Source: Escherichia phage dw-ec. Taken from it: DNA of 64,000 nt. Of this stretch, positions 20,760 to 62,785 are shown in pieces. The notes under the pieces are model-generated. The model did no database searches. It was given only the letters and a program-made list of their open reading frames with translations, and was not told the DNA's origin. Every line of letters begins with the position of its first letter. Position 1 is the first letter of the stretch. The translations under genes were made by a program, and so were the position numbers. The stretch is from the sequence record OL739525.1; one strand, 5' to 3'.

Positions 20760-21413
20760 CTATACCAGACTTTCAAGGTATTTGTCAAGGGCTTCTTGAT
20801 CACCTTGACAAACATAGCAACGGAAGTCTTGAGCCGAAGGTTGTTTATTTTCATCCCAGTCCCAATAAACATTACCCTTATAACGTGAACCAGGAAACTC
20901 AAAAGAGGCTGTATGTGTAATGTACCCTGGGCCACCAGTGAAATCACAGAATGAGAATTGGGGGTATGCCGCCTTTACTGCCTCAATAAACCAAGCTTTA
21001 CGATCTAAAGCTTCATTGATGCTATACGCATGTCTCTCCATTTCTTCCCACGTTTTCCAGACACTTCTCTCATCAGGAGAAAAGACAAGCCATTCTGGAA
21101 GGTATAGAGTGTCATAGTAATCATCATATTCGATCTCGGAGGCGCACGAAGCTGACTCCTCCAGTTTTGAGTAATCAAAAGCAGAATATACCCACCAACC
21201 ATCTTCCAGTAAGGCTTTGATAGGGACGAAGCCTTTATCAGCATATTGATCGAATTGTTTGACACGGTGGCTTGTGCAGTCTTCAAACTCACATTCTAAA
21301 CGATATGCACCTTTTCGACGAGCCTCAAGACCGTGTGTACTGAAAATAACAACACTTCCTTCACCATCATTACGATCTACTTGATAAGCAACCACTGGTT
21401 TTGAATTTGACAT
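20760..21413 (-). CDS. hypothetical protein
   Basis: ORF with RBS; 217 aa. Confidence 0.5.
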   Translation of the reverse strand: MSNSKPVVAYQVDRNDGEGSVVIFSTHGLEARRKGAYRLECEFEDCTSHRVKQFDQYADKGFVPIKALLEDGWWVYSAFDYSKLEESASCASEIEYDDYYDTLYLPEWLVFSPDERSVWKTWEEMERHAYSINEALDRKAWFIEAVKAAYPQFSFCDFTGGPGYITHTASFEFPGSRYKGNVYWDWDENKQPSAQDFRCYVCQGDQEALDKYLESLV

Positions 21414-22096
21414 TATTTCTCCTTATCTAGAAGATTGTTAGACAAAAACACTGCACGAGCAAAACCACGTGCGGTTAGTGATCTAAGTTGTTTTGTTTTT
21501 GCACTAGCTCCACCTAAGCTTTTCCAACCCCAGAAGCAGCCTATATGATCTACTGGTTTCTTCACTGGTTGAACAAAACCGTTGCCGTGCCAAATACAAG
21601 TTTTCTTTGTATACCCATCACGGGTAGGCATTTTAGGATGAAAGCTTCCTTCCTCTTCAAACAAATACCCACCATACTCATAAGGATCAAAGTAAAAATC
21701 GGGTTTACGCCATAAGGTTGAAAGTTTACCTACTGGGTTCTCAATCATCCAAGGAACATTATATTTGTTACCCAAAGCTTCCACTACACGAATATTAGCT
21801 AAAGCTTCATCCAATGCCTCTGTGCTGCGTTCGTGTTTGCTACCACTACCTGCTAACATAGTGCAAGGTGGAAATCCAAAAATAATATCGGGTTTAGGTA
21901 TCCCATGATCTTCAGGGTTGAATGTAGAATCTATCCAGGCATTCACATAGGTTATGTTTGGGTGCTCCATCCTAACCTCGTATTTACCGTGATCCCCTTC
22001 ATCAGCGTTTACACAAAAACATTTGTGACCTGCTTCGGCATAACGTAACACCATGATCCCAGATCCGTCAAACATAGACAAAACTGTTTTACTCAT
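21413..22096 (-). CDS. DNA (cytosine-5)-methyltransferase-like protein (short, catalytic core only)
   Basis: motif I-like SMFDGSG, motif IV GFPPCTMLAG (PC), motif VI IENPVG (ENV); start set at internal ATG with RBS ggagggg. Confidence 0.5.
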   Translation of the reverse strand: MSKTVLSMFDGSGIMVLRYAEAGHKCFCVNADEGDHGKYEVRMEHPNITYVNAWIDSTFNPEDHGIPKPDIIFGFPPCTMLAGSGSKHERSTEALDEALANIRVVEALGNKYNVPWMIENPVGKLSTLWRKPDFYFDPYEYGGYLFEEEGSFHPKMPTRDGYTKKTCIWHGNGFVQPVKKPVDHIGCFWGWKSLGGASAKTKQLRSLTARGFARAVFLSNNLLDKEK

Positions 22097-22502
22097 TACC
22101 CCTCCATTCAAGACAAGCCATAACTTTACGCCAATCACTTTCTGTAAGAAAAATCTCGTTTGCTTTCTTCCACAAATCTAAATCGTGAAGGGTTGGAATA
22201 CGATATGTTAGTTCACAGAATCTATGCTCTTCTTCTGTAATATAACCAAAATGCAGAGCCACATCGTGAAACCAACACCAACCATGCATCTCTCGAACAA
22301 CATGGTCATGTTGAGACATTATTTTATGCCGTAAACCTAACCAACAAGGAACAGATACTTTAGTAGTCTTTAATCTGTGATCAACAGTATTAGAGTATTC
22401 AATAATAGCTGTCAGTTTCAATCGTGCTTTTTCTAAATCCTCATGGGTCACTTTGAAATAACTTTCTGAAAGATATCCACACATATTAATAACCTCCTTC
22501 AA
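22089..22502 (-). CDS. hypothetical protein
   Basis: ORF in operon, 137 aa. Confidence 0.45.
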   Translation of the reverse strand: MKEVINMCGYLSESYFKVTHEDLEKARLKLTAIIEYSNTVDHRLKTTKVSVPCWLGLRHKIMSQHDHVVREMHGWCWFHDVALHFGYITEEEHRFCELTYRIPTLHDLDLWKKANEIFLTESDWRKVMACLEWRGNE

Positions 22503-28512: not shown

Positions 28513-29022
28513 TTAAACAAAATAAAATGGTTGAGAGAGGCCCAAACGATTCTTTGGGTCGTATACATACCAAGCGTATGCTGTCTTATCTGTTCCACCT
28601 GCAACAAACGAAGGCCGTTCTGAAAGGACTATAAGGTTTGTTGGTGGATTCTTTTGATGGAACTCTCGTCGTTTCTTTGACTCCAAGAAGCCCAACCGAA
28701 GAAGATAAATACAAACATCCGCCTCTTTTAAGCTCTTTTCCAAGAACTCCATTGCTAACTTAAATGGAGGGTTTGTAATTATAATGTCGGGACGATTTTC
28801 CCATTCATGACTAAAATAATCTTTACCTTCTTCAAGTTCGCAATATTCTGAACCTTCAGGAAAATGGCGATAAATCGCTTCAGCTTCACCTCTGCAAGGT
28901 TCTGCAAAAACCCAACCTTCTTCCTTTAGATTTTTGAAATCTATAACACTAAACAAACTATTGATTGCTTTTTGCGGTGTCGGATAATAATCGCTCGTTG
29001 GGCGATCATAATCTAATGCCAT
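28513..29022 (-). CDS. DNA N6-adenine methyltransferase-like protein (small phage Dam-type)
   Basis: YYPTP N-terminal motif and catalytic IIITNPPF (NPPF). Confidence 0.55.
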   Translation of the reverse strand: MALDYDRPTSDYYPTPQKAINSLFSVIDFKNLKEEGWVFAEPCRGEAEAIYRHFPEGSEYCELEEGKDYFSHEWENRPDIIITNPPFKLAMEFLEKSLKEADVCIYLLRLGFLESKKRREFHQKNPPTNLIVLSERPSFVAGGTDKTAYAWYVYDPKNRLGLSQPFYFV

Positions 29023-32172: not shown

Positions 32173-32433
32173 TTACTCCGCAATTTGAGCCATGAGATCA
32201 CGCAGTTCGGTAAAACCGCCTACGTATGTTACCTCCCCGTTCACTTCAGACAGAATTTGTGGAAATGTGCGTGGAGGAACTCCGGTAAGATCAACAACTG
32301 TTTTAGTCATTGATTCTAAATCATAGTCTTGATCAAGACTTAAATATTCAAACTGTTTATTGCGCATGGTTAATAGTTGTTTTGACATTTCGCAAAATTG
32401 ACAGTTAGGTTTACCAAAAATTACAAATTCCAT
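32173..32433 (-). CDS. glutaredoxin-like protein
   Basis: N-terminal beta strand plus CQFC redox motif; adjacent to RNR genes. Confidence 0.65.
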   Translation of the reverse strand: MEFVIFGKPNCQFCEMSKQLLTMRNKQFEYLSLDQDYDLESMTKTVVDLTGVPPRTFPQILSEVNGEVTYVGGFTELRDLMAQIAE

Positions 32434-33275
32434 TACCTCTCCTTATTAAGTAATACTGCTAAAGACTGTTCAATACCTTTATTTAAATCTGATTTTGTAA
32501 GATAGTGACTGGTTACTAGTTGTGACTTCACCGGACGTGCTGCTGGAGCATTATAGGTTGAAGCTGATACCGCCGATATCTTAACAGGTTCTGGCATCTG
32601 TGTCAAGATCTTTTCCGCAAACTCCGCCCAAGAAATAAAATGGCTTCCTGCAAAATGGTAAGTCTTAACAGACCTTGACCAACCTGTTTTTAATACTTCA
32701 AAAATAGCTTCTGCTAAATCTGGAGCATATGTTGGGCAAGAGAACTGATCAGCAACAACAATAAAATCACGTTGTCCATCATTATAGCGAGACAACATGG
32801 TTTTTAGAAAGTTATTTCCAAATTCGCTATATACCGAGGCTGTTCGAATAATATATGCATTTGGGTTAACTCCTCGCACCATTTTTTCACCAAGTTCTTT
32901 CGTATACCCATAATTGTTTATTGGGTTAGGTGTAGTATCTTCAAAAATAGGATGAGAATAATTAAAAATATAATCTGTAGAAATATGCACAAAATCAATT
33001 TTAAGTTTGCTGCACACTGCCGCAATATTTGCAGGTCCATATGCATTAACAGCCAAAGCAGTAGCAAAATCATGTTCTGCTTTATCTACAGCCGTATAAG
33101 CAGCGCAGTTAATAACACCGTCTACATAATCTTCAACAATAGCGTTTCGCACAGCTTCAAAATTTGTAATATCTACACGTTCTTTAGGATAAATTAAAGA
33201 TACATTTGAAGGAACCACTTTACGTAAAGCTTGTCCCAGTTGTCCATTACCACCCAATACCAGATATATTAGCAT
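32433..33275 (-). CDS. dTDP-4-dehydrorhamnose reductase-like (RmlD family, SDR fold)
   Basis: N-terminal LVLGGNGQLG nucleotide-binding motif, AAYTAVDKAE, STDYIF motifs typical of RmlD. Confidence 0.6.
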   Translation of the reverse strand: MLIYLVLGGNGQLGQALRKVVPSNVSLIYPKERVDITNFEAVRNAIVEDYVDGVINCAAYTAVDKAEHDFATALAVNAYGPANIAAVCSKLKIDFVHISTDYIFNYSHPIFEDTTPNPINNYGYTKELGEKMVRGVNPNAYIIRTASVYSEFGNNFLKTMLSRYNDGQRDFIVVADQFSCPTYAPDLAEAIFEVLKTGWSRSVKTYHFAGSHFISWAEFAEKILTQMPEPVKISAVSASTYNAPAARPVKSQLVTSHYLTKSDLNKGIEQSLAVLLNKER

Positions 33276-33835
33276 ACACCCTCACTACGCAACTGTTGAA
33301 AAGATTTAGCCATTGCATCTTTTGTTGATAAGATAGGTTTAAAATCTTCATCAAAAATCATATCAAAGCCCCAATCGATCCCTATATCAGGATCATCCCA
33401 ACGTAAACTTTGTTCGCTAGAAGGGTCGTATGGAGTTGTGCATTTGTATTCAAAGATAGCATCCATACTCAAAACTATAAAACCATGTGCCAAACCAGGT
33501 GGAAGCCAAAATTGCGTATGGTGTCGTGCACGAAGAACAACACCGTCCCAAGCACCGTAAGTTGGACTATCTTTACGTAAATCTACAGCGAAATCCAATA
33601 CTTCTCCACTTACACAACGAACAAGCTTACCTTGCGGGTTGTTTGTTTGGAAGTGCATTCCTCGCAAAACACCGAAGTTTGATTTAGACATGTTATCTTG
33701 AACGAAAGTTTGTCTACCAATAATATCTTCGTATTTTTGTTCATTGTATGTTTCTAAAAAGAAACCACGATCATCTTTATAAACGTCTGGTTTGATAATT
33801 ACCGCACCTTCAATTTTTGTTTTTTCTACTTTCAT
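33269..33835 (-). CDS. dTDP-4-dehydrorhamnose 3,5-epimerase-like (RmlC family, cupin)
   Basis: DDRGFFLETY, VQDNMSKS..GVLRGMHFQ, GKLVRCVSGEV.DFAVDLRK, GLAHGF motifs match RmlC. Confidence 0.7.
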   Translation of the reverse strand: MKVEKTKIEGAVIIKPDVYKDDRGFFLETYNEQKYEDIIGRQTFVQDNMSKSNFGVLRGMHFQTNNPQGKLVRCVSGEVLDFAVDLRKDSPTYGAWDGVVLRARHHTQFWLPPGLAHGFIVLSMDAIFEYKCTTPYDPSSEQSLRWDDPDIGIDWGFDMIFDEDFKPILSTKDAMAKSFQQLRSEGVC

Positions 33836-33844
33836 TTTCTCTCC

Positions 33845-34171
33845 TTACCAGACATGTTGAGAAATAATAGTTTCCGTTTTAATGTTATATTTTTCAAGTA
33901 GCTCTGCATAGGCTTCTTTTGCATTCTCATTTAATTGCTCAAGATCTACAGCTACGCTTCCTTCTCCGCCTTCTAAATAAATACCATATATGCAATAAGA
34001 CTCATCAGCATCGTAGAAAGGAGAGATGCGACTTAAGTCCAGACCTTCTTGTAAGAACCAGTTAAAATCTCCGTCAAATTCTTCTTCAATTCTAGGATCT
34101 TCTCCTACAGCCTCTTCCCACTTATTAAAAGGTGCACCCTGTAACATACGCCATTCGATATCAATACCCAT
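33845..34171 (-). CDS. hypothetical acidic protein
   Basis: ORF, 108 aa. Confidence 0.45.
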   Translation of the reverse strand: MGIDIEWRMLQGAPFNKWEEAVGEDPRIEEEFDGDFNWFLQEGLDLSRISPFYDADESYCIYGIYLEGGEGSVAVDLEQLNENAKEAYAELLEKYNIKTETIISQHVW

Positions 34172-34463
34172 TTTTCATCTCCTCCTCTTGAGCAGCTTTA
34201 ATAATTGCTTCATAAATATCGTAAGCAATGCCTCCACAACATCTAGCTTCGAAAGCTATTGCTTCTGCAATGTGGTCTGTTAGTTCTCGTGGAATTCGGA
34301 CATACTCTTTTTCACTCTCCATCTTCTACCTCCGACCCTGCTTTTTCAAATACTACTACTCGTCCTTCACCATGACAATTCAGGCAAGGAAATGTTACCA
34401 TAATTTCCACTTCCATCTGTCCAGTCCCACCACACACAGGACAAAAAATAAGTTTTTCAGCCA

Positions 34464-34673
34464 TTATTCCTCCTTAATTATTTCAAACTTGGCAACACCA
34501 TTTACAATAATATGACCACAAGACATAACTCCTAGCCAAGGATCGCCGTTTTTCTTCAGGCGTTTACCGAATACATCACAAAAACCATTCTTCATTTCGG
34601 AGGCTTCATAAGAAGCCCCTTTGTCAAAAACGTCTTTGAATGTGTCGATTATACCAACACATCTCAAAATCAT
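34464..34673 (-). CDS. hypothetical protein
   Basis: ORF, 69 aa, immediately downstream of nrdB. Confidence 0.4.
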   Translation of the reverse strand: MILRCVGIIDTFKDVFDKGASYEASEMKNGFCDVFGKRLKKNGDPWLGVMSCGHIIVNGVAKFEIIKEE

Positions 34674-35758
34674 TAGAAGTCAAGCTCCTCATCATCAGAG
34701 AGATCTTTGTTAGCTGAATTCAATTTGTAATTAGTTAACTGAATCTCTTGGGCTGCTGACTGAATCAAATCAGGATTCAACCATTTTTCCATCCAAGCTA
34801 AAGGACTATGTTTAGGTGCTTTAAACTTGGCTTTCATTTTCAATCGACGATAAATAGGAGCAGCATTGAAATAAACCCACTGTTTAGACAATTCGGCGTT
34901 AAGACCTACAATAAAACGACCTTCACTAAACAGGTAGTCACACCACTGTTCCTCTTGTTCAACAACAGTGTCGAGGATCAAAGTCAACTCTTCAATATTG
35001 TCTTCGTAAATTTTACGCCAAATTGGGTCATGCATCAATGCATCAATTACAGCATAATCCATCTTAACATGCAAGATTTCATCTAGCATAATTTTCTGGA
35101 TCAGCTTACAAGCCCCAACAAACAATTGTTGTTCTGCCATAGCAAAAGTAGCAGAGAAGGAAGATATAAACTGAATACCTTCTAATCCAATCAGGGCTAC
35201 CATCCCTTTAAGAATCAGCAATCGAAGTTCATCGTTAGCTTCAATCAATCCTAGAGCATACTTATGACCAGCTTCTTCCAACTGACCCATGATATCAGCA
35301 ATGATACCCATACGATTGAAAATTTTATCATTAATCATAATCTGATTGATGACTTCAATTGGATCTGGAGTACATTGACGAATTATTTCAGAATACGTTA
35401 ACGCATGGAGAACTTCCATTTCACTCTGCTTCATCATCATAGCACAGGCTTCATTGTTACTCAAGAATGGAGAGAACAAAGTGATGATTGATTTTGCAAG
35501 AGAATCATTTTCCCATTGGAACGATAAGTTTTTAATCATAACATCATAGTTGTTTTTAGAACAAGCTACGAAATCTTTACGTGTCTGATCCAAGTTAACT
35601 TCGTTTTCATCCCAATCTTGTGCTTTTTGAAGTTTGTAGAGTTTGTGCATTTCTGGATAAGTTACGTTAACAGAATCAAAGATCCCTAATTGCTCCCCCA
35701 AAAATACTGGATATTTTCCTGTTTTGTAAACTTCGTTGTGTAAATTAATTGCTGCCAT
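34673..35758 (-). CDS. nrdB: ribonucleotide reductase small subunit (class I beta)
   Basis: size 361 aa, E..H iron-ligand pairs (DEILH), adjacent to nrdA. Confidence 0.7.
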   Translation of the reverse strand: MAAINLHNEVYKTGKYPVFLGEQLGIFDSVNVTYPEMHKLYKLQKAQDWDENEVNLDQTRKDFVACSKNNYDVMIKNLSFQWENDSLAKSIITLFSPFLSNNEACAMMMKQSEMEVLHALTYSEIIRQCTPDPIEVINQIMINDKIFNRMGIIADIMGQLEEAGHKYALGLIEANDELRLLILKGMVALIGLEGIQFISSFSATFAMAEQQLFVGACKLIQKIMLDEILHVKMDYAVIDALMHDPIWRKIYEDNIEELTLILDTVVEQEEQWCDYLFSEGRFIVGLNAELSKQWVYFNAAPIYRRLKMKAKFKAPKHSPLAWMEKWLNPDLIQSAAQEIQLTNYKLNSANKDLSDDEELDF

Positions 35759-36083
35759 TTAAATCCTCCACTATTTCACAAAAACCTCTTAAGCTTAAAA
35801 TATCTTCTTCCTCAAAATCATTGCTCCGGTAGAAAGCTTCCAGTGCTTCCCATACGCTTCTACCAAGTATAACAGTCACTGTTTCTTCACTTCTTGCCCT
35901 TGTTATTGCGTAAGCCGTGGCTTCTGGATAAAAAGATTCCCAAATCTGCATGTTAGCTATTTCAAGACCGCCAAGATAATGGTGACACCAAGTAGGGGTA
36001 AAATCTTCAGGGCGAATCAACAGAGGCTTAAACCCAGGTCGGTAGATTGGGGTTACTCCAGGTAAAACTATAAGTGTGCTCAT
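35745..36083 (-). CDS. hypothetical protein between nrdA and nrdB
   Basis: ATG at 36083 with RBS gaggagg. Confidence 0.4.
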   Translation of the reverse strand: MSTLIVLPGVTPIYRPGFKPLLIRPEDFTPTWCHHYLGGLEIANMQIWESFYPEATAYAITRARSEETVTVILGRSVWEALEAFYRSNDFEEEDILSLRGFCEIVEDLNGSN

Positions 36084-36092
36084 AATCCTCCT

Positions 36093-36115
36093 CAATAAAA
36101 AGGGGCTGAAGCCCC
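36093..36115 (-). terminator. intrinsic terminator or attenuator (minus strand) after nrdA
   Basis: hairpin ggggcttcagcccc followed on the minus strand by TTTTTATT. Confidence 0.55.
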
Positions 36116-36123
36116 TAGTTTCA

Positions 36124-38364
36124 TCACATCTTGCAAGCTTCACAACCACCATCAGAATCTTCTTGTGCTAAAGAGTCTGCTGATTTTGTTCTACTATTAA
36201 GGTAATACAACGACTTACCACCCAGTCTAGCAAAATTCAGAATAAACTGCATCTCAGCTTTCACTGATAAACGTCCACCTACCAATTTAGAATAATCTAG
36301 CCAAGAATCACAAGAAATTCCTTGGTCCGTAAACTTGGTAAAGATACCATACATTTCTGCAAGGTCTTTAGCCGGAGTGTCCCAGGCGGACTGGTAGAAC
36401 ATTTTCAGTTTTTCGTAGTCTGGAACAATAAATAATACACTACCTTTCTGACTTTGTTTATACATAATAGTATCACGAACAGGATACAGAGAGTTAGTAG
36501 TATTGCTTACCAAACTGCTGGACTCATTAGGTGCGATAGCAGCCAAGACACTGTTACGGATACCACCTTGTTCAATGATTTCAGCACGTAAGCCTTCCCA
36601 GTCCATTTTAAGATCAAAATTACCGATACTATCTACTGTTTTAGCATAAGTGTCAATTGGTAGCCAACCTTGAGGCCATTTGGTCTTATCAATCCATTCC
36701 GCATTACCTTTTTCCTTAGCCAGACGCAGAGAGGCTTTTGCCAACCAGAAGTAATGACGTTCTGCAAGTTCATGCATTAATTTTTTAGCGTAAGCATCTG
36801 AATAATTTACAAAATTACTTGCCAAGTAATGCGCTAAGTTTGTAATGCCTACACCAATAGATCTACGTGCTTTAGCAGTTATTTCGTTATGTTTAAATGG
36901 ATAATCCATTGTTTCAATAACGTTGTCAATTGTCAATACAGTGTAGTATGCAACATCCTCATATTCTTCAGGTAAGACACGACCAGCAACAATAGAAGAT
37001 AAGAAGCATAAAGCCAACTCTTGATCTTCTGTATTCTCACCAGTAAAGAGATCCGGCATACTGTGGAAAGCTTTAGTTGGTAAGAAGATCTCTTGACACA
37101 GGTTTGATTGATACACCGTATCCAGGAAAGGTGTATGGTTGTTAACGTTGTCAGCAAAGAACATGTAAATACGTCCTGTTTCTGCACGTTGAACAATAAT
37201 CTCTGTCAGAAGATCACGAGCCTTAACAAATTTTTTCTTAATGCGACGACGGCTTACTTTGTCATAAACTGCATCAAACTCTTCTTCACTTTTATACAAA
37301 GCTTCATAAAGTTCAGGAGCATCATCACAACTAACTAACATCCAATCTTCGTTTTTTGCTGCTCGACGCAAGAATGAACGGTTAACAACAATAGAATAAT
37401 CCAGTTTGTCTACTCGTTTATCTATAGGTGTTGTTGGATTCTTCAGTCGAATCAGATCGTCGAAGTCTGGTTCAAGTATGGTAAAGGTAACTGTAGCACT
37501 ACCTCCACGGCTTGCTTGCTTCGAAGCTCCAACACTATCTTCCATCCATTTCAGATACGGAAGAAGACCACCATGAATAATACGATTATTCTTAACACCT
37601 TGACCTGTGGCACGAGTTTGAAGATTAACACCAATACCTGCGTTATTCAACGTATACTCATGAGCTAAGTAATTAGCAATGGCTAAAGACTCTGCTGTGT
37701 CATCTGCACGGAATAAACAACAAGACGCACTTCCTTTGATTGGAGTTCGTAGAGTTGTCAGATATGGTGATGGCAGATTAATCTTAAGATCGCTAACATA
37801 AGTATACAGTTTTTTAATATCTTCTATACGGCGTTCTTTTGGTTGGATCTCCATAACCTTCATTGCGATACCAATGAAAAGAAACTGTGGAGACTCATGC
37901 ACCACATCGTTTACTGCATCTCGGATAAGATATTTATCCACCATCTGACGTAAAACAGAATAGCCATAAGTTAGATTTTTATTATGCTTTACAATCTTAC
38001 CAATTTCTTTGATCTCTTCATCAGTATAATCCATTTTAGCCCAATGTCCACGTTCTACCATATCATGATAAAAGGTATTCAGTGAAGGGATACTGTGGTA
38101 TCCCCCATGAGCCTGTTTGTAAATCATACCCAGAAGAAGTCTTCCTGCCATATCACTGTAAGCTTGTGTTTTCTTGTCAATACACGCTGCAATCATTGCT
38201 TTATGCAGATCACGTGTAGACACACCGTCATAACACCGCTTCACAGCTTCTAATTCAATTTCAGACCAGTTTAGTTTACCTGCTGCAAATTCAGACCACT
38301 TGCGAAGTTTTTCTGGATTAAACTCCTCTGTCTTACCGTTAGATTTAGTTACAAAACGAATCAA
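36124..38364 (-). CDS. nrdA: ribonucleotide reductase large subunit (class Ia alpha)
   Basis: N-terminal ATP-cone (VTKSNGKTEEFNPEKL), 746 aa, C-terminal Cys pair CEACKM as in class I NrdA. Confidence 0.9.
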   Translation of the reverse strand: MIRFVTKSNGKTEEFNPEKLRKWSEFAAGKLNWSEIELEAVKRCYDGVSTRDLHKAMIAACIDKKTQAYSDMAGRLLLGMIYKQAHGGYHSIPSLNTFYHDMVERGHWAKMDYTDEEIKEIGKIVKHNKNLTYGYSVLRQMVDKYLIRDAVNDVVHESPQFLFIGIAMKVMEIQPKERRIEDIKKLYTYVSDLKINLPSPYLTTLRTPIKGSASCCLFRADDTAESLAIANYLAHEYTLNNAGIGVNLQTRATGQGVKNNRIIHGGLLPYLKWMEDSVGASKQASRGGSATVTFTILEPDFDDLIRLKNPTTPIDKRVDKLDYSIVVNRSFLRRAAKNEDWMLVSCDDAPELYEALYKSEEEFDAVYDKVSRRRIKKKFVKARDLLTEIIVQRAETGRIYMFFADNVNNHTPFLDTVYQSNLCQEIFLPTKAFHSMPDLFTGENTEDQELALCFLSSIVAGRVLPEEYEDVAYYTVLTIDNVIETMDYPFKHNEITAKARRSIGVGITNLAHYLASNFVNYSDAYAKKLMHELAERHYFWLAKASLRLAKEKGNAEWIDKTKWPQGWLPIDTYAKTVDSIGNFDLKMDWEGLRAEIIEQGGIRNSVLAAIAPNESSSLVSNTTNSLYPVRDTIMYKQSQKGSVLFIVPDYEKLKMFYQSAWDTPAKDLAEMYGIFTKFTDQGISCDSWLDYSKLVGGRLSVKAEMQFILNFARLGGKSLYYLNSRTKSADSLAQEDSDGGCEACKM

Positions 38365-39140: not shown

Positions 39141-40139
39141 TCACCATTTAGTATGATTTGTTAAAAGTTGACGATGTTGAATCCAGCCTTTGAAATTGCC
39201 AGACCAAAACTTACCATTACGATCTACATGGGTAATACCTGGTTCCCAAGAGTTAAAATCCCAAGGAGCATTGATAAACAAATCTTCAAAACAGTTCTCT
39301 CCATATTGTTCGTATGTTTCTTGCATTGGAGTGGCTTGATGTTCAAACGGAGAAGCATGAACCTTGCGCCCAGTCAGCAAACGACCATAGATATCTAAAG
39401 CTTTATCTTTAGTTGCATTTAAACGACGATAGCTAACCTGTGCACAACACGAAGCTGAAATAGCTTTGGCTTCTTCCAAAGTAAGCACAACAACTTCTCC
39501 AGATTCATCTTGAACATAGTATCCACCAAAAACAAAATGATCGTCACCTTCTGTGCCAATATTATCATAGAAATGGTTTACATAAGGTGTGTGCCATTGC
39601 CCTGGTTTCAGCACTTCTGGTGTAGATTCTTCATACTCTTTGTGCATCTCTTTAGCCAAAGCTTCGATAGTAGGATCGGCTTCTTTGTCATCACGTAGCC
39701 ACCAGAAATTTTCATATTCTGTTGCTGTCAGAACTGTTTTAATTCGTTGGAAAGGTTCCAGAAGACGGTTTGCAACTTGTTTGTGGTACCCTGCCAAAGA
39801 GAATTCTTCTGCAAAACGTGCTGCACTAAGCGCGGCAAGATCCCACCACTCTTGAGCAGTATAACCTGCATCAATAAGAGCATCATGGTCAACACCTTTG
39901 TCCTGCATACCAGGTTGGTTAGCCCCGAAACGATAAGGACGAGCAGGCTGATTTCGAACCATTTCGATCAGTGTTTTAACAGGTATAGCACGGCTAGAAG
40001 CAGCATTACGACTGAACAGGCGGTGAGTCATCAGTTCTGAATGAATAATACGTGGATATTCAAGTTCGAAAGTTACAATCTCTTTTCCGTCTTCAGTGAT
40101 GGAATGTGCAATAATACTAGCCGAAATCTGTTTTGTCAT
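39141..40139 (-). CDS. thyX: flavin-dependent thymidylate synthase-like (ThyX family)
   Basis: HRLFSRNAASSRA fits the ThyX signature RHR-x7-S region; nucleotide metabolism context. Confidence 0.55.
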   Translation of the reverse strand: MTKQISASIIAHSITEDGKEIVTFELEYPRIIHSELMTHRLFSRNAASSRAIPVKTLIEMVRNQPARPYRFGANQPGMQDKGVDHDALIDAGYTAQEWWDLAALSAARFAEEFSLAGYHKQVANRLLEPFQRIKTVLTATEYENFWWLRDDKEADPTIEALAKEMHKEYEESTPEVLKPGQWHTPYVNHFYDNIGTEGDDHFVFGGYYVQDESGEVVVLTLEEAKAISASCCAQVSYRRLNATKDKALDIYGRLLTGRKVHASPFEHQATPMQETYEQYGENCFEDLFINAPWDFNSWEPGITHVDRNGKFWSGNFKGWIQHRQLLTNHTKW

Positions 40140-62305: not shown

Positions 62306-62785
62306 ATGGAACTCAATAAAGATACACTGTGGGAACTCTTCAAAACCTTCGCTGGTTTTAAAGAGAATTCTGAATCCCAACAAGATTCTATACCATCTCA
62401 AAAACCTGAAACTCTAGTCAAACAAAATAAATTTGATGAAGAAAAGATGCAGGTTATTGAGGTCTTGTATTGTCCACCTGAAGAAGACGATCTCCACGGA
62501 GAGCGCATGTCTGATTTGGAAATCAGGAAGATGGTTGACAACTTCAATGAGAATATTACCAATATTAGCGGTAATCTTGGTCACATGAAGAACACCGATA
62601 AGTTTGCTCCAATTAAAGCTTGGGTAAATGAAGTCGATTGTTACATTGGTGACGAACTCGTTGTGGAAGGAACTCCCCTCGTTAAAATCCAATTCAACGA
62701 CCCTGAATTATATCAAGCTCGTAAAGACGGCGTTCTTAAAGGTTTGAGTATAGGCGCAATGGGCGTTAAAGTCAAGAAGGACTAA
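62306..62785 (+). CDS. hypothetical head-morphogenesis-associated protein
   Basis: ORF between portal and scaffold-like gene. Confidence 0.4.
   Translation: MELNKDTLWELFKTFAGFKENSESQQDSIPSQKPETLVKQNKFDEEKMQVIEVLYCPPEEDDLHGERMSDLEIRKMVDNFNENITNISGNLGHMKNTDKFAPIKAWVNEVDCYIGDELVVEGTPLVKIQFNDPELYQARKDGVLKGLSIGAMGVKVKKD

Follow-up and report, generated by a model that had tools for sequence, protein, structure and literature searches.

Two rhamnose-pathway genes in a coliphage genome

The window analyzed here is a stretch of 64,000 nucleotides from Escherichia phage dw-ec (sequence record OL739525.1), and its minus strand carries two adjacent open reading frames (ORFs) with predicted functions in the synthesis of deoxythymidine diphosphate (dTDP)-L-rhamnose. 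The first, rmlC (33269..33835), encodes a dTDP-4-dehydrorhamnose 3,5-epimerase of 188 amino acids (aa) in the families TIGR01221 and PF00908, and the second, rmlD (32433..33275), encodes a dTDP-4-dehydrorhamnose reductase of 280 aa in TIGR01214 and PF04321. The genes overlap by 7 nt (ATGCTAA), with the ATG of rmlD lying within the final codons of rmlC. An earlier reading of the window from its letters (the original prediction) had placed such a pair between a glutaredoxin gene and nrdB, and the ORFs lie exactly where it put them.

Profile and structure comparisons agree with both assignments. RmlC scored 225.4 bits against TIGR01221 (equivalog cut-off 155.75), covering positions 1-174 of the 176 in the model, and matched PF00908 with an E value of 1e-66. 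RmlD scored 239.2 bits against TIGR01214 (equivalog cut-off 224.05) and matched PF04321 with an E value of 2e-73. The PHROGs names for the two ORFs also agree with RmlC and RmlD. Residues 3-178 of RmlC align to the Salmonella RmlC structure 1dzr (E 4e-56), and H61, K70, Y130, and D173 of the phage protein correspond to H63, K73, Y133, and D170 of the Salmonella enzyme, which comprise the catalytic His/Asp dyad, the Tyr, and the Lys. NovW and ChmJ, related cupins that act as mono-epimerases, were weaker matches to RmlC in this structure-sequence comparison, and double epimerization at C3 and C5 is the predicted activity. RmlD aligns to the RmlD structures 3sc6 (E 1e-44) and 1vl0 (E 1e-43) and possesses both the G8xxG11xxG14 motif and the Thr/Tyr/Lys triad (T100, Y122, and K126). 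The catalytic and motif residues of the two proteins showed zero variation across the 19 genomes that we compared. With scores above the equivalog cut-offs and active-site residues that are intact relative to solved structures, the RmlC/RmlD assignment of the original prediction holds. We predict that the two ORFs encode functional RmlC and RmlD enzymes of a Phapecoctavirus, and it is very likely that these enzymes make dTDP-L-rhamnose.

The phage proteins share their enzyme families and catalytic residues with the bacterial RmlABCD systems (rfbBDAC of E. coli; RmlC 1dzr and RmlD 1kbz of Salmonella). They differ from these systems in that the window encodes steps 3 and 4 only, and in that a phage nucleotide-metabolism operon, not an O-antigen cluster, houses the genes. 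Against the enterobacterial model PRK09987, RmlD scored 118.6 bits. This is far under the cut-off of 308, and the gene is therefore not a recent capture from E. coli.

The genome belongs to Phapecoctavirus (phAPEC8-like coliphages) in the subfamily Stephanstirmvirinae, and a phage origin of the two rml genes, as the original prediction had it, is supported. The whole window is collinear with positions 12377-76251 of phage ETEC-TG at 99.3-99.6% identity, while the rml region is 99.7% identical to that of ETEC-TG and 99.5% identical to that of phage anhysbys. Searching IMG/VR with RmlC turned up only two loci, one of them close and the other distant.

The genes, the pathway, and the variant without rmlA and rmlB are already known from GenBank and the literature. 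Dozens of GenBank records annotate both genes as dTDP-4-dehydrorhamnose 3,5-epimerase and reductase, and the same rmlCD-only variant has been deposited for ETEC-TG, anhysbys, ZCKP1, and ESCO37, among others. The lack of RmlA and RmlB in ESCO37 was noted in print in 2023 (PMC10269720). Olsen et al. (2020) described the dTDP-rhamnose pathway in phapecoctaviruses and proposed that it serves the glycosylation of hydroxymethylated nucleotides (PMC7552041). We add to this the exact deletion junction, evidence that rmlBA was lost repeatedly while rmlCD was strictly kept, the argument for host supply of the substrate, and the link to a cluster of glycosyltransferase genes.

Recurrent loss of rmlB and rmlA

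The complete dTDP-L-rhamnose pathway claimed for phapecoctaviruses (PMC7552041) includes RmlA and RmlB, and neither is present here. In agreement with the original prediction, tblastn with the phAPEC8 proteins detected no RmlA or RmlB in the window, and tblastn with the phAPEC8 and phi92 proteins detected neither in the complete genome of ETEC-TG, the closest complete genome. In phAPEC8 (JX561091) the same slot holds rmlB-rmlA-rmlC-rmlD, and relative to this phage exactly 1,876 bp, corresponding to the rmlB and rmlA ORFs, are gone from the window. Slot (between nrdB and the glutaredoxin gene), gene order, and orientation are otherwise the same as in the phAPEC8 and phi92 cassettes, from which the window differs by the missing rmlB and rmlA. 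The RmlC and RmlD proteins of phAPEC8 are 99.5% and 97.5% identical to those of the window, respectively.

The deletion left a short junction (33836..33847), which we located by comparison with phAPEC8. On the minus strand, the left neighbor of the cassette, a 108-aa ORF (phrog_15453; 33845..34171) that is kept in two-gene and four-gene genomes, ends at its stop codon and is followed by GGAGAGAAA and then by the ATG of rmlC. The junction sequence in the window is TAAGGAGAGAAAATG, running into rmlC. In phAPEC8, TAAGGAGAACTGATG lies ahead of rmlB and GCGGAGAGAAAATGA lies at the rmlA/rmlC boundary. Common to both break points is GGAGA, the core of the two Shine-Dalgarno sequences that precede rmlB and rmlC, so that rmlC keeps a ribosome-binding site. 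Of 11 rmlCD-only genomes that we compared, 10 share the GGAGA junction.

At a threshold of at least 95% identity, 64 phage records contain rmlCD and 42 of them also contain rmlBA, which leaves about a third of the records rmlCD-only. Among phages with this region, several carry host labels that look doubtful: Campylobacter phages B15, A145, and A110a, Acinetobacter phage ABPW7, and Pseudomonas phage PsgM04F (MG065650, MG065645, MG065689, OP562383, and OR584014). B15 and PsgM04F are 98% and 94% identical over rmlBA to coliphages of the subfamily, ABPW7 is 98% identical over rmlCD, and A145 and A110a resemble phi92-type phages at the protein level in this region.

The four-gene cassette is the older arrangement. 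It occupies the same slot, in the order rmlB-A-C-D, in phi92 (NC_023693, a Justusliebigvirus) and in the divergent phage phiWec179. Between phAPEC8 and phi92, RmlB, RmlA, RmlC, and RmlD are 62%, 71%, 61%, and 53% identical, while NrdB, lysozyme, and PhoH, taken for comparison, are 84%, 77%, and 76% identical. The similar divergence of all four rml genes points to a cassette older than the separation of the two genera. The phi92 record notes that the PVP-SE1 homologues of NrdB and glutaredoxin are gp139 and gp141, a placement that implies absence of the cassette from this Vequintavirinae phage. In phiWec179 (L024 2625-5900) the cassette is a mosaic, with RmlB and RmlA 94% and 97% identical to those of phAPEC8 and RmlC and RmlD only 63% and 65% identical, which points to recombination with a break between rmlA and rmlC.

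We identified four distinct deletions of rmlBA. Besides the GGAGA junction of the window, rmlBA has been lost at a different junction in MirsaeidiM_Esher1, and Klebsiella phage KP2025, with an RmlC only 59% identical to that of the window, is also rmlCD-only. In DIJ07P2 (L030, about 1950) an internal deletion of ~0.8 kb, with a 9-nt overlap at the junction, takes the bulk of rmlA together with the 3' end of rmlB; RmlB is truncated to 306 aa, and both rmlC (188 aa) and rmlD (280 aa) are intact. In neighbor-joining trees of rmlCD and of both flanks, genomes with two and with four genes were interspersed, and BI-EHEC (four genes) is nearly identical to anhysbys (two genes). This interleaving means that the GGAGA indel has either been moved by recombination or has recurred at the same site. 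The two-gene state is a recurrent deletion derivative of an ancestral Stephanstirmvirinae four-gene cassette. The pair is not a minimal pathway by design, and this deletion history was not part of the original prediction.

Through these losses rmlC and rmlD have been strictly maintained. Both are full length in all 20 of the Phapecoctavirus genomes examined. We estimated ratios of nonsynonymous to synonymous substitution (dN/dS) pairwise by the Nei-Gojobori method. In rmlCD-only genomes the ratio was 0.03-0.04 for rmlC and 0.11 for rmlD, compared to 0.016 and 0.08 in four-gene genomes, and these pairwise values include polymorphism possibly older than the deletion. The two genes are under strong purifying selection, and no relaxation was seen after the loss of rmlBA. 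Repeated loss of rmlBA together with strict retention of rmlCD constitutes a natural experiment on the steps that the host can cover.

Source of the substrate and fate of the product

E. coli K-12 encodes a second thymidylyltransferase and dehydratase, RffH and RffG, in its enterobacterial common antigen cluster, where rffG and rffH are followed by the gene for WecE, annotated as a dTDP-4-dehydro-6-deoxy-D-glucose transaminase. The RffG/RffH intermediate, dTDP-4-keto-6-deoxyglucose, is the substrate of RmlC. The rffG-rffH pair is present in 5,309 of 5,426 complete E. coli genomes (98%), while rfbC was detectable in 2,348 of the 5,426 (43%), a lower bound as this gene is variable. With rffG-rffH near-universal and rfbC patchy, the host would nearly always provide the substrate and would often be unable to finish the pathway. 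It is likely, therefore, that the host supplies the substrate of phage RmlC and RmlD. The use of a host dTDP-4-keto-6-deoxyglucose pool, which the original prediction had suggested, thus gains support from the near-universal rffG-rffH pair and from purifying selection on rmlCD in genomes that lack rmlBA, while nothing was found in support of its other suggestion that the phage depletes a host cell-wall precursor. Host supply predicts that rmlCD-only phages depend on the host genotype at rffG/rfbB.

A candidate consumer of the product lies elsewhere in the genome. The search for glycosyltransferases that the original prediction had proposed led to four consecutive genes, outside the window, at positions 117160-120304 of ETEC-TG, beside the genes for primase/helicase and DNA polymerase. 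Two of the four are paralogous GT-B group 1 enzymes, and the third (GT3, 227 aa) is, like the fourth, a member of a family found only in phages. Among 5.8 billion proteins only 17 homologues of GT3 were found, and GT3 contains invariant DDD and ED motifs. Its structural model has a GT-A fold with a predicted local distance difference test score (pLDDT) of 88, and PDB sequence searches with GT1, GT3, and GT4 returned nothing meaningful.

The distribution of GT3 mirrors that of rmlC. At a threshold of at least 95% identity, the record sets of RmlC and GT3 are near-identical (64 each), and counts by organism name for RmlC and GT3 are 105 and 106 for Escherichia and 8 and 9 for Klebsiella. Two-gene and four-gene genomes alike carry GT3 at 99.6-100% identity. 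Directly beside a GT3 homologue, one distant phage contig encodes an RmlB-like dehydratase (TIGR01181, 171 bits, under the cut-off), an arrangement that ties the cluster to nucleoside diphosphate-6-deoxyhexose chemistry independently of shared ancestry. We give about even chances to the cluster being the consumer of dTDP-L-rhamnose. Adjoining the glycosyltransferase genes in ETEC-TG is a Ter-type cluster at 121.6-132 kb (L007:21600-32300) that encodes TerD, a vWA-TerF-like protein, TelA, a ComF-like phosphoribosyltransferase, a phosphatase, and a hydrolase, and the same adjacency occurs in the distant contig L029.

A mechanism can be proposed from these data. Starting from an ancestral rmlB-rmlA-rmlC-rmlD cassette, inserted between nrdB and the glutaredoxin gene, this lineage lost rmlBA when 1,876 bp were deleted from the Shine-Dalgarno sequence of rmlB to that of rmlC, and rmlC kept a working ribosome-binding site. 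During infection, RffH and RffG of the host, together with RmlA and RmlB where these are present, would make dTDP-4-keto-6-deoxy-D-glucose. Phage RmlC would epimerize this intermediate at C3 and C5, and RmlD would then reduce the epimerized product to dTDP-L-rhamnose, to be used most likely by the phage's own four glycosyltransferases. We lean toward this explanation as a whole, that is, a retained RmlCD pair that is fed by the host and in turn feeds the phage glycosyltransferases.

As acceptor we would rank virion proteins ahead of a host envelope glycan, and the latter ahead of DNA. Virion proteins come first because GT3 matches glycosyltransferases of the cluster F mycobacteriophages, in which capsid glycosylation has been reported, and even so they are a tentative choice. 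To our knowledge, the cluster F phages Che8 and Rita carry no rml genes. They do resemble the phages studied here in encoding glycosyltransferases of their own. In a tblastn search GT3 matched 327 records of Mycobacterium phages, including cluster F, with 25-28% identity across ~57% of the query (best E 1e-8), and GT3 is thus related, at a distance, to the glycosyltransferases of Che8-type virion glycosylation. Glycans have been reported on the capsids of cluster F mycobacteriophages (PMC11256854).

Several points weigh against this interpretation. The margin of RmlD over its cut-off is only 15 bits, and the enzyme may be a C4 reductase that yields 6-deoxy-L-talose, as sequence alone does not fix the C4 stereochemistry of the product (rhamnose or 6-deoxy-talose). 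The dN/dS values carry the possibly older polymorphism noted above. The glycosyltransferase cluster was read in ETEC-TG and not in the genome of the window itself, and it is 72 kb away from rmlCD. Co-occurrence of RmlC and GT3 is confounded by shared ancestry and may reflect one or few gains. The fold neighbors of GT3 (among them STIV A197, TarP, GalNAc-T7, Listeria RmlT, and the collagen glycosyltransferase domain of LH3) are generic GT-A matches with template modeling scores (TM-scores) of 0.4-0.5 that do not identify a donor or an acceptor. GT3 also shows faint similarity to enzymes that glycosylate DNA: it matches PF20691 (TAGT, TET-associated glycosyltransferase) at E 1e-3 and 19.5 bits, under the cut-off of 27.5, and matches phrog_842 (beta-glucosyl-HMC alpha-glucosyltransferase) weakly, at E 8e-6 over residues 32-70 only. 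Lastly, enzyme activity, host complementation, the glycosyltransferase link, and the acceptor are what we infer.

We propose only cautiously that the four-glycosyltransferase cluster and the split host/phage pathway place a rhamnose-containing glycan on virion proteins or on a different acceptor, for example DNA. If true, this would be the first such split-pathway glycan system described in a coliphage. Should the target be the virion, the immune recognition and stability of therapeutic phages would be affected, as reported for mycobacteriophages. The subfamily as a whole, lytic coliphages with a use in phage-therapy work, keeps the synthesis of dTDP-rhamnose along with the four glycosyltransferases.

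One alternative is that the phage remodels the host envelope, altering the lipopolysaccharide (LPS) core, the O antigen, or the common antigen in such a way that receptors are masked. Rhamnose is a natural sugar of the E. coli envelope, two of the four glycosyltransferases are GT-B group 1 enzymes, a family that includes LPS core transferases, and the fold neighbors of GT3 include TarP, which is a wall teichoic acid transferase encoded by a phage, and RmlT, a rhamnosyltransferase of Listeria. These phages also depend on the LPS core (PMC8594841). However, the annotation around the glycosyltransferases shows no flippase, polymerase, or lipid-carrier transferase next to them, and these are lytic phages, for which the time for envelope turnover would be short. 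We regard such remodeling, which could serve superinfection exclusion or keep progeny from adsorbing to debris, as unlikely.

Another possibility is that RmlC and RmlD manage the nucleotide pool. dTDP-L-rhamnose is an established feedback inhibitor of RmlA, and by inhibiting RmlA-type thymidylyltransferases it could stop the drain on dTTP and spare this nucleotide for replication. The position of the genes between nrdAB and the glutaredoxin gene and near thyX, with which they are probably co-transcribed and translationally coupled as a block, fits this idea, as does the retention of rmlCD while rmlBA was repeatedly lost. On the other hand, the ancestral and still common state carries a phage RmlA, itself a consumer of dTTP. 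The near-perfect co-occurrence with the glycosyltransferase cluster suggests that the product is consumed, and a distant relative has the RmlB-like dehydratase inside that cluster. Such a role is quite unlikely.

Glycosylation of DNA would involve transfer of rhamnose from dTDP-rhamnose onto a hydroxymethylated base, by analogy with the glucosylated hydroxymethylcytosine (hmC) of T-even phages. It has already been proposed in print (PMC7552041), and the original prediction raised a glycosyl modification of DNA as well. In its favor, the rml cassette lies in a nucleotide-metabolism block and the glycosyltransferase genes lie beside those for primase/helicase and DNA polymerase, as phage glycosyltransferases of the T-even hmC and TET-associated systems lie near replication and nucleotide-metabolism genes; the GT3 similarity to these systems, below threshold, covers one short motif. 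The donor would differ, being a dTDP-6-deoxyhexose here and UDP-glucose in T-even phages. The enzymes that would prepare the base were not detected: Pfam scans of 102 unannotated ORFs of at least 90 aa and ~20 other proteins of ETEC-TG found, within the sensitivity of Pfam, no ThyA-family hydroxymethylase, TET/JBP enzyme, or 2-oxoglutarate (2OG)-Fe(II) oxygenase, and PHROG-based annotation of ETEC-TG revealed no hydroxymethylase or TET enzyme either. The thymidylate synthase of the phage, encoded at 39141-40139, is of the ThyX type. We know of no rhamnosylated DNA.

The behavior of relatives toward restriction enzymes also argues against glycosylated DNA. Maffei et al. (2021) reported exceptional susceptibility to restriction-modification systems in Vequintavirinae and their relatives, among them the phi92-like phages, which carry the same cassette, and this in spite of the putative dTDP glycosylation machinery of the latter (PMC8594841). 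Genomes of Phapecoctavirus have been fingerprinted with HincII (PMC10269720). This fingerprinting method was all that we found in the literature on restriction digests or DNA modification in Phapecoctavirus. We nevertheless hold DNA glycosylation to be improbable rather than dismiss it outright, because site-specific modification is compatible with restriction sensitivity.

The original prediction had also seen a DNA-modification theme in two methyltransferase-like genes of the same block. Two such ORFs do lie on the minus strand, one at 28513..29022 with an NPPF motif and one at 21413..22138 that is C5-cytosine methyltransferase-like, with FDGSG, GFPPC, and ENP motifs and no Pfam match, and the latter could be counted in favor of DNA glycosylation. 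However, they are ordinary neighbors 3-11 kb away and show no demonstrated link to the rml genes. Given the missing hydroxymethylase and TET/JBP enzymes, the ThyX-type synthase, and the restriction-sensitive relatives, we see no positive evidence for the theme. The ORF at 21413-22138 is labeled a DNA methyltransferase in relatives and appears to be a divergent C5-cytosine methyltransferase-like member. A further "DNA methyltransferase" annotated in ETEC-TG, corresponding to 62306-62785 on the plus strand of the window, matches the XkdF-like prohead protease family (PF14550, E 1e-11) and lies between portal and capsid genes; the methyltransferase annotation is thus probably wrong.

Finally, the notion that rmlCD is a decaying relic, left functionless by the loss of rmlBA and awaiting degradation, agrees with the origin of the two-gene state by deletion but was rejected as highly improbable on the basis of dN/dS and ORF integrity, as the ORFs are full length throughout with invariant catalytic residues, dN/dS in genomes with rmlCD alone shows no relaxation against that in four-gene genomes, and the two-gene state persists in the far more divergent KP2025.

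Neighboring genes

The rml genes are embedded in a co-oriented nucleotide-metabolism block. Immediately downstream of rmlD, on the same strand, lies the glutaredoxin gene (32173..32433; PF00462, E 2e-9). The stop codon of rmlD and the start codon of the glutaredoxin gene overlap in the sequence TAATG, and the two genes are probably translationally coupled. A promoter/terminator scan detected no terminator-like site on the minus strand from 36100 to 29480.

Upstream of the pair, four small ORFs separate rmlC from nrdB (34673..35758, minus strand). One of these, at 34312-34464 on the minus strand, encodes a 50-aa miniprotein with two CxxCxGxG motifs of the DnaJ zinc-finger type and is conserved between nrdB and the rml cassette. 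Farther upstream is nrdA (36124-38364, minus strand), and between nrdB and nrdA lies a variable slot (35745-36152). This slot holds a 135-aa ORF in the window, an HNH endonuclease gene in ETEC-TG and phi92, and a 112-aa ORF in ZCKP1 and SF1-1. Elsewhere in ETEC-TG, the Pfam scan of hypothetical ORFs revealed an Acb2/Tad1 hairpin domain (anti-CBASS/Thoeris sponge family), NADAR and cREC_REC domains, and a SprT-like protein.

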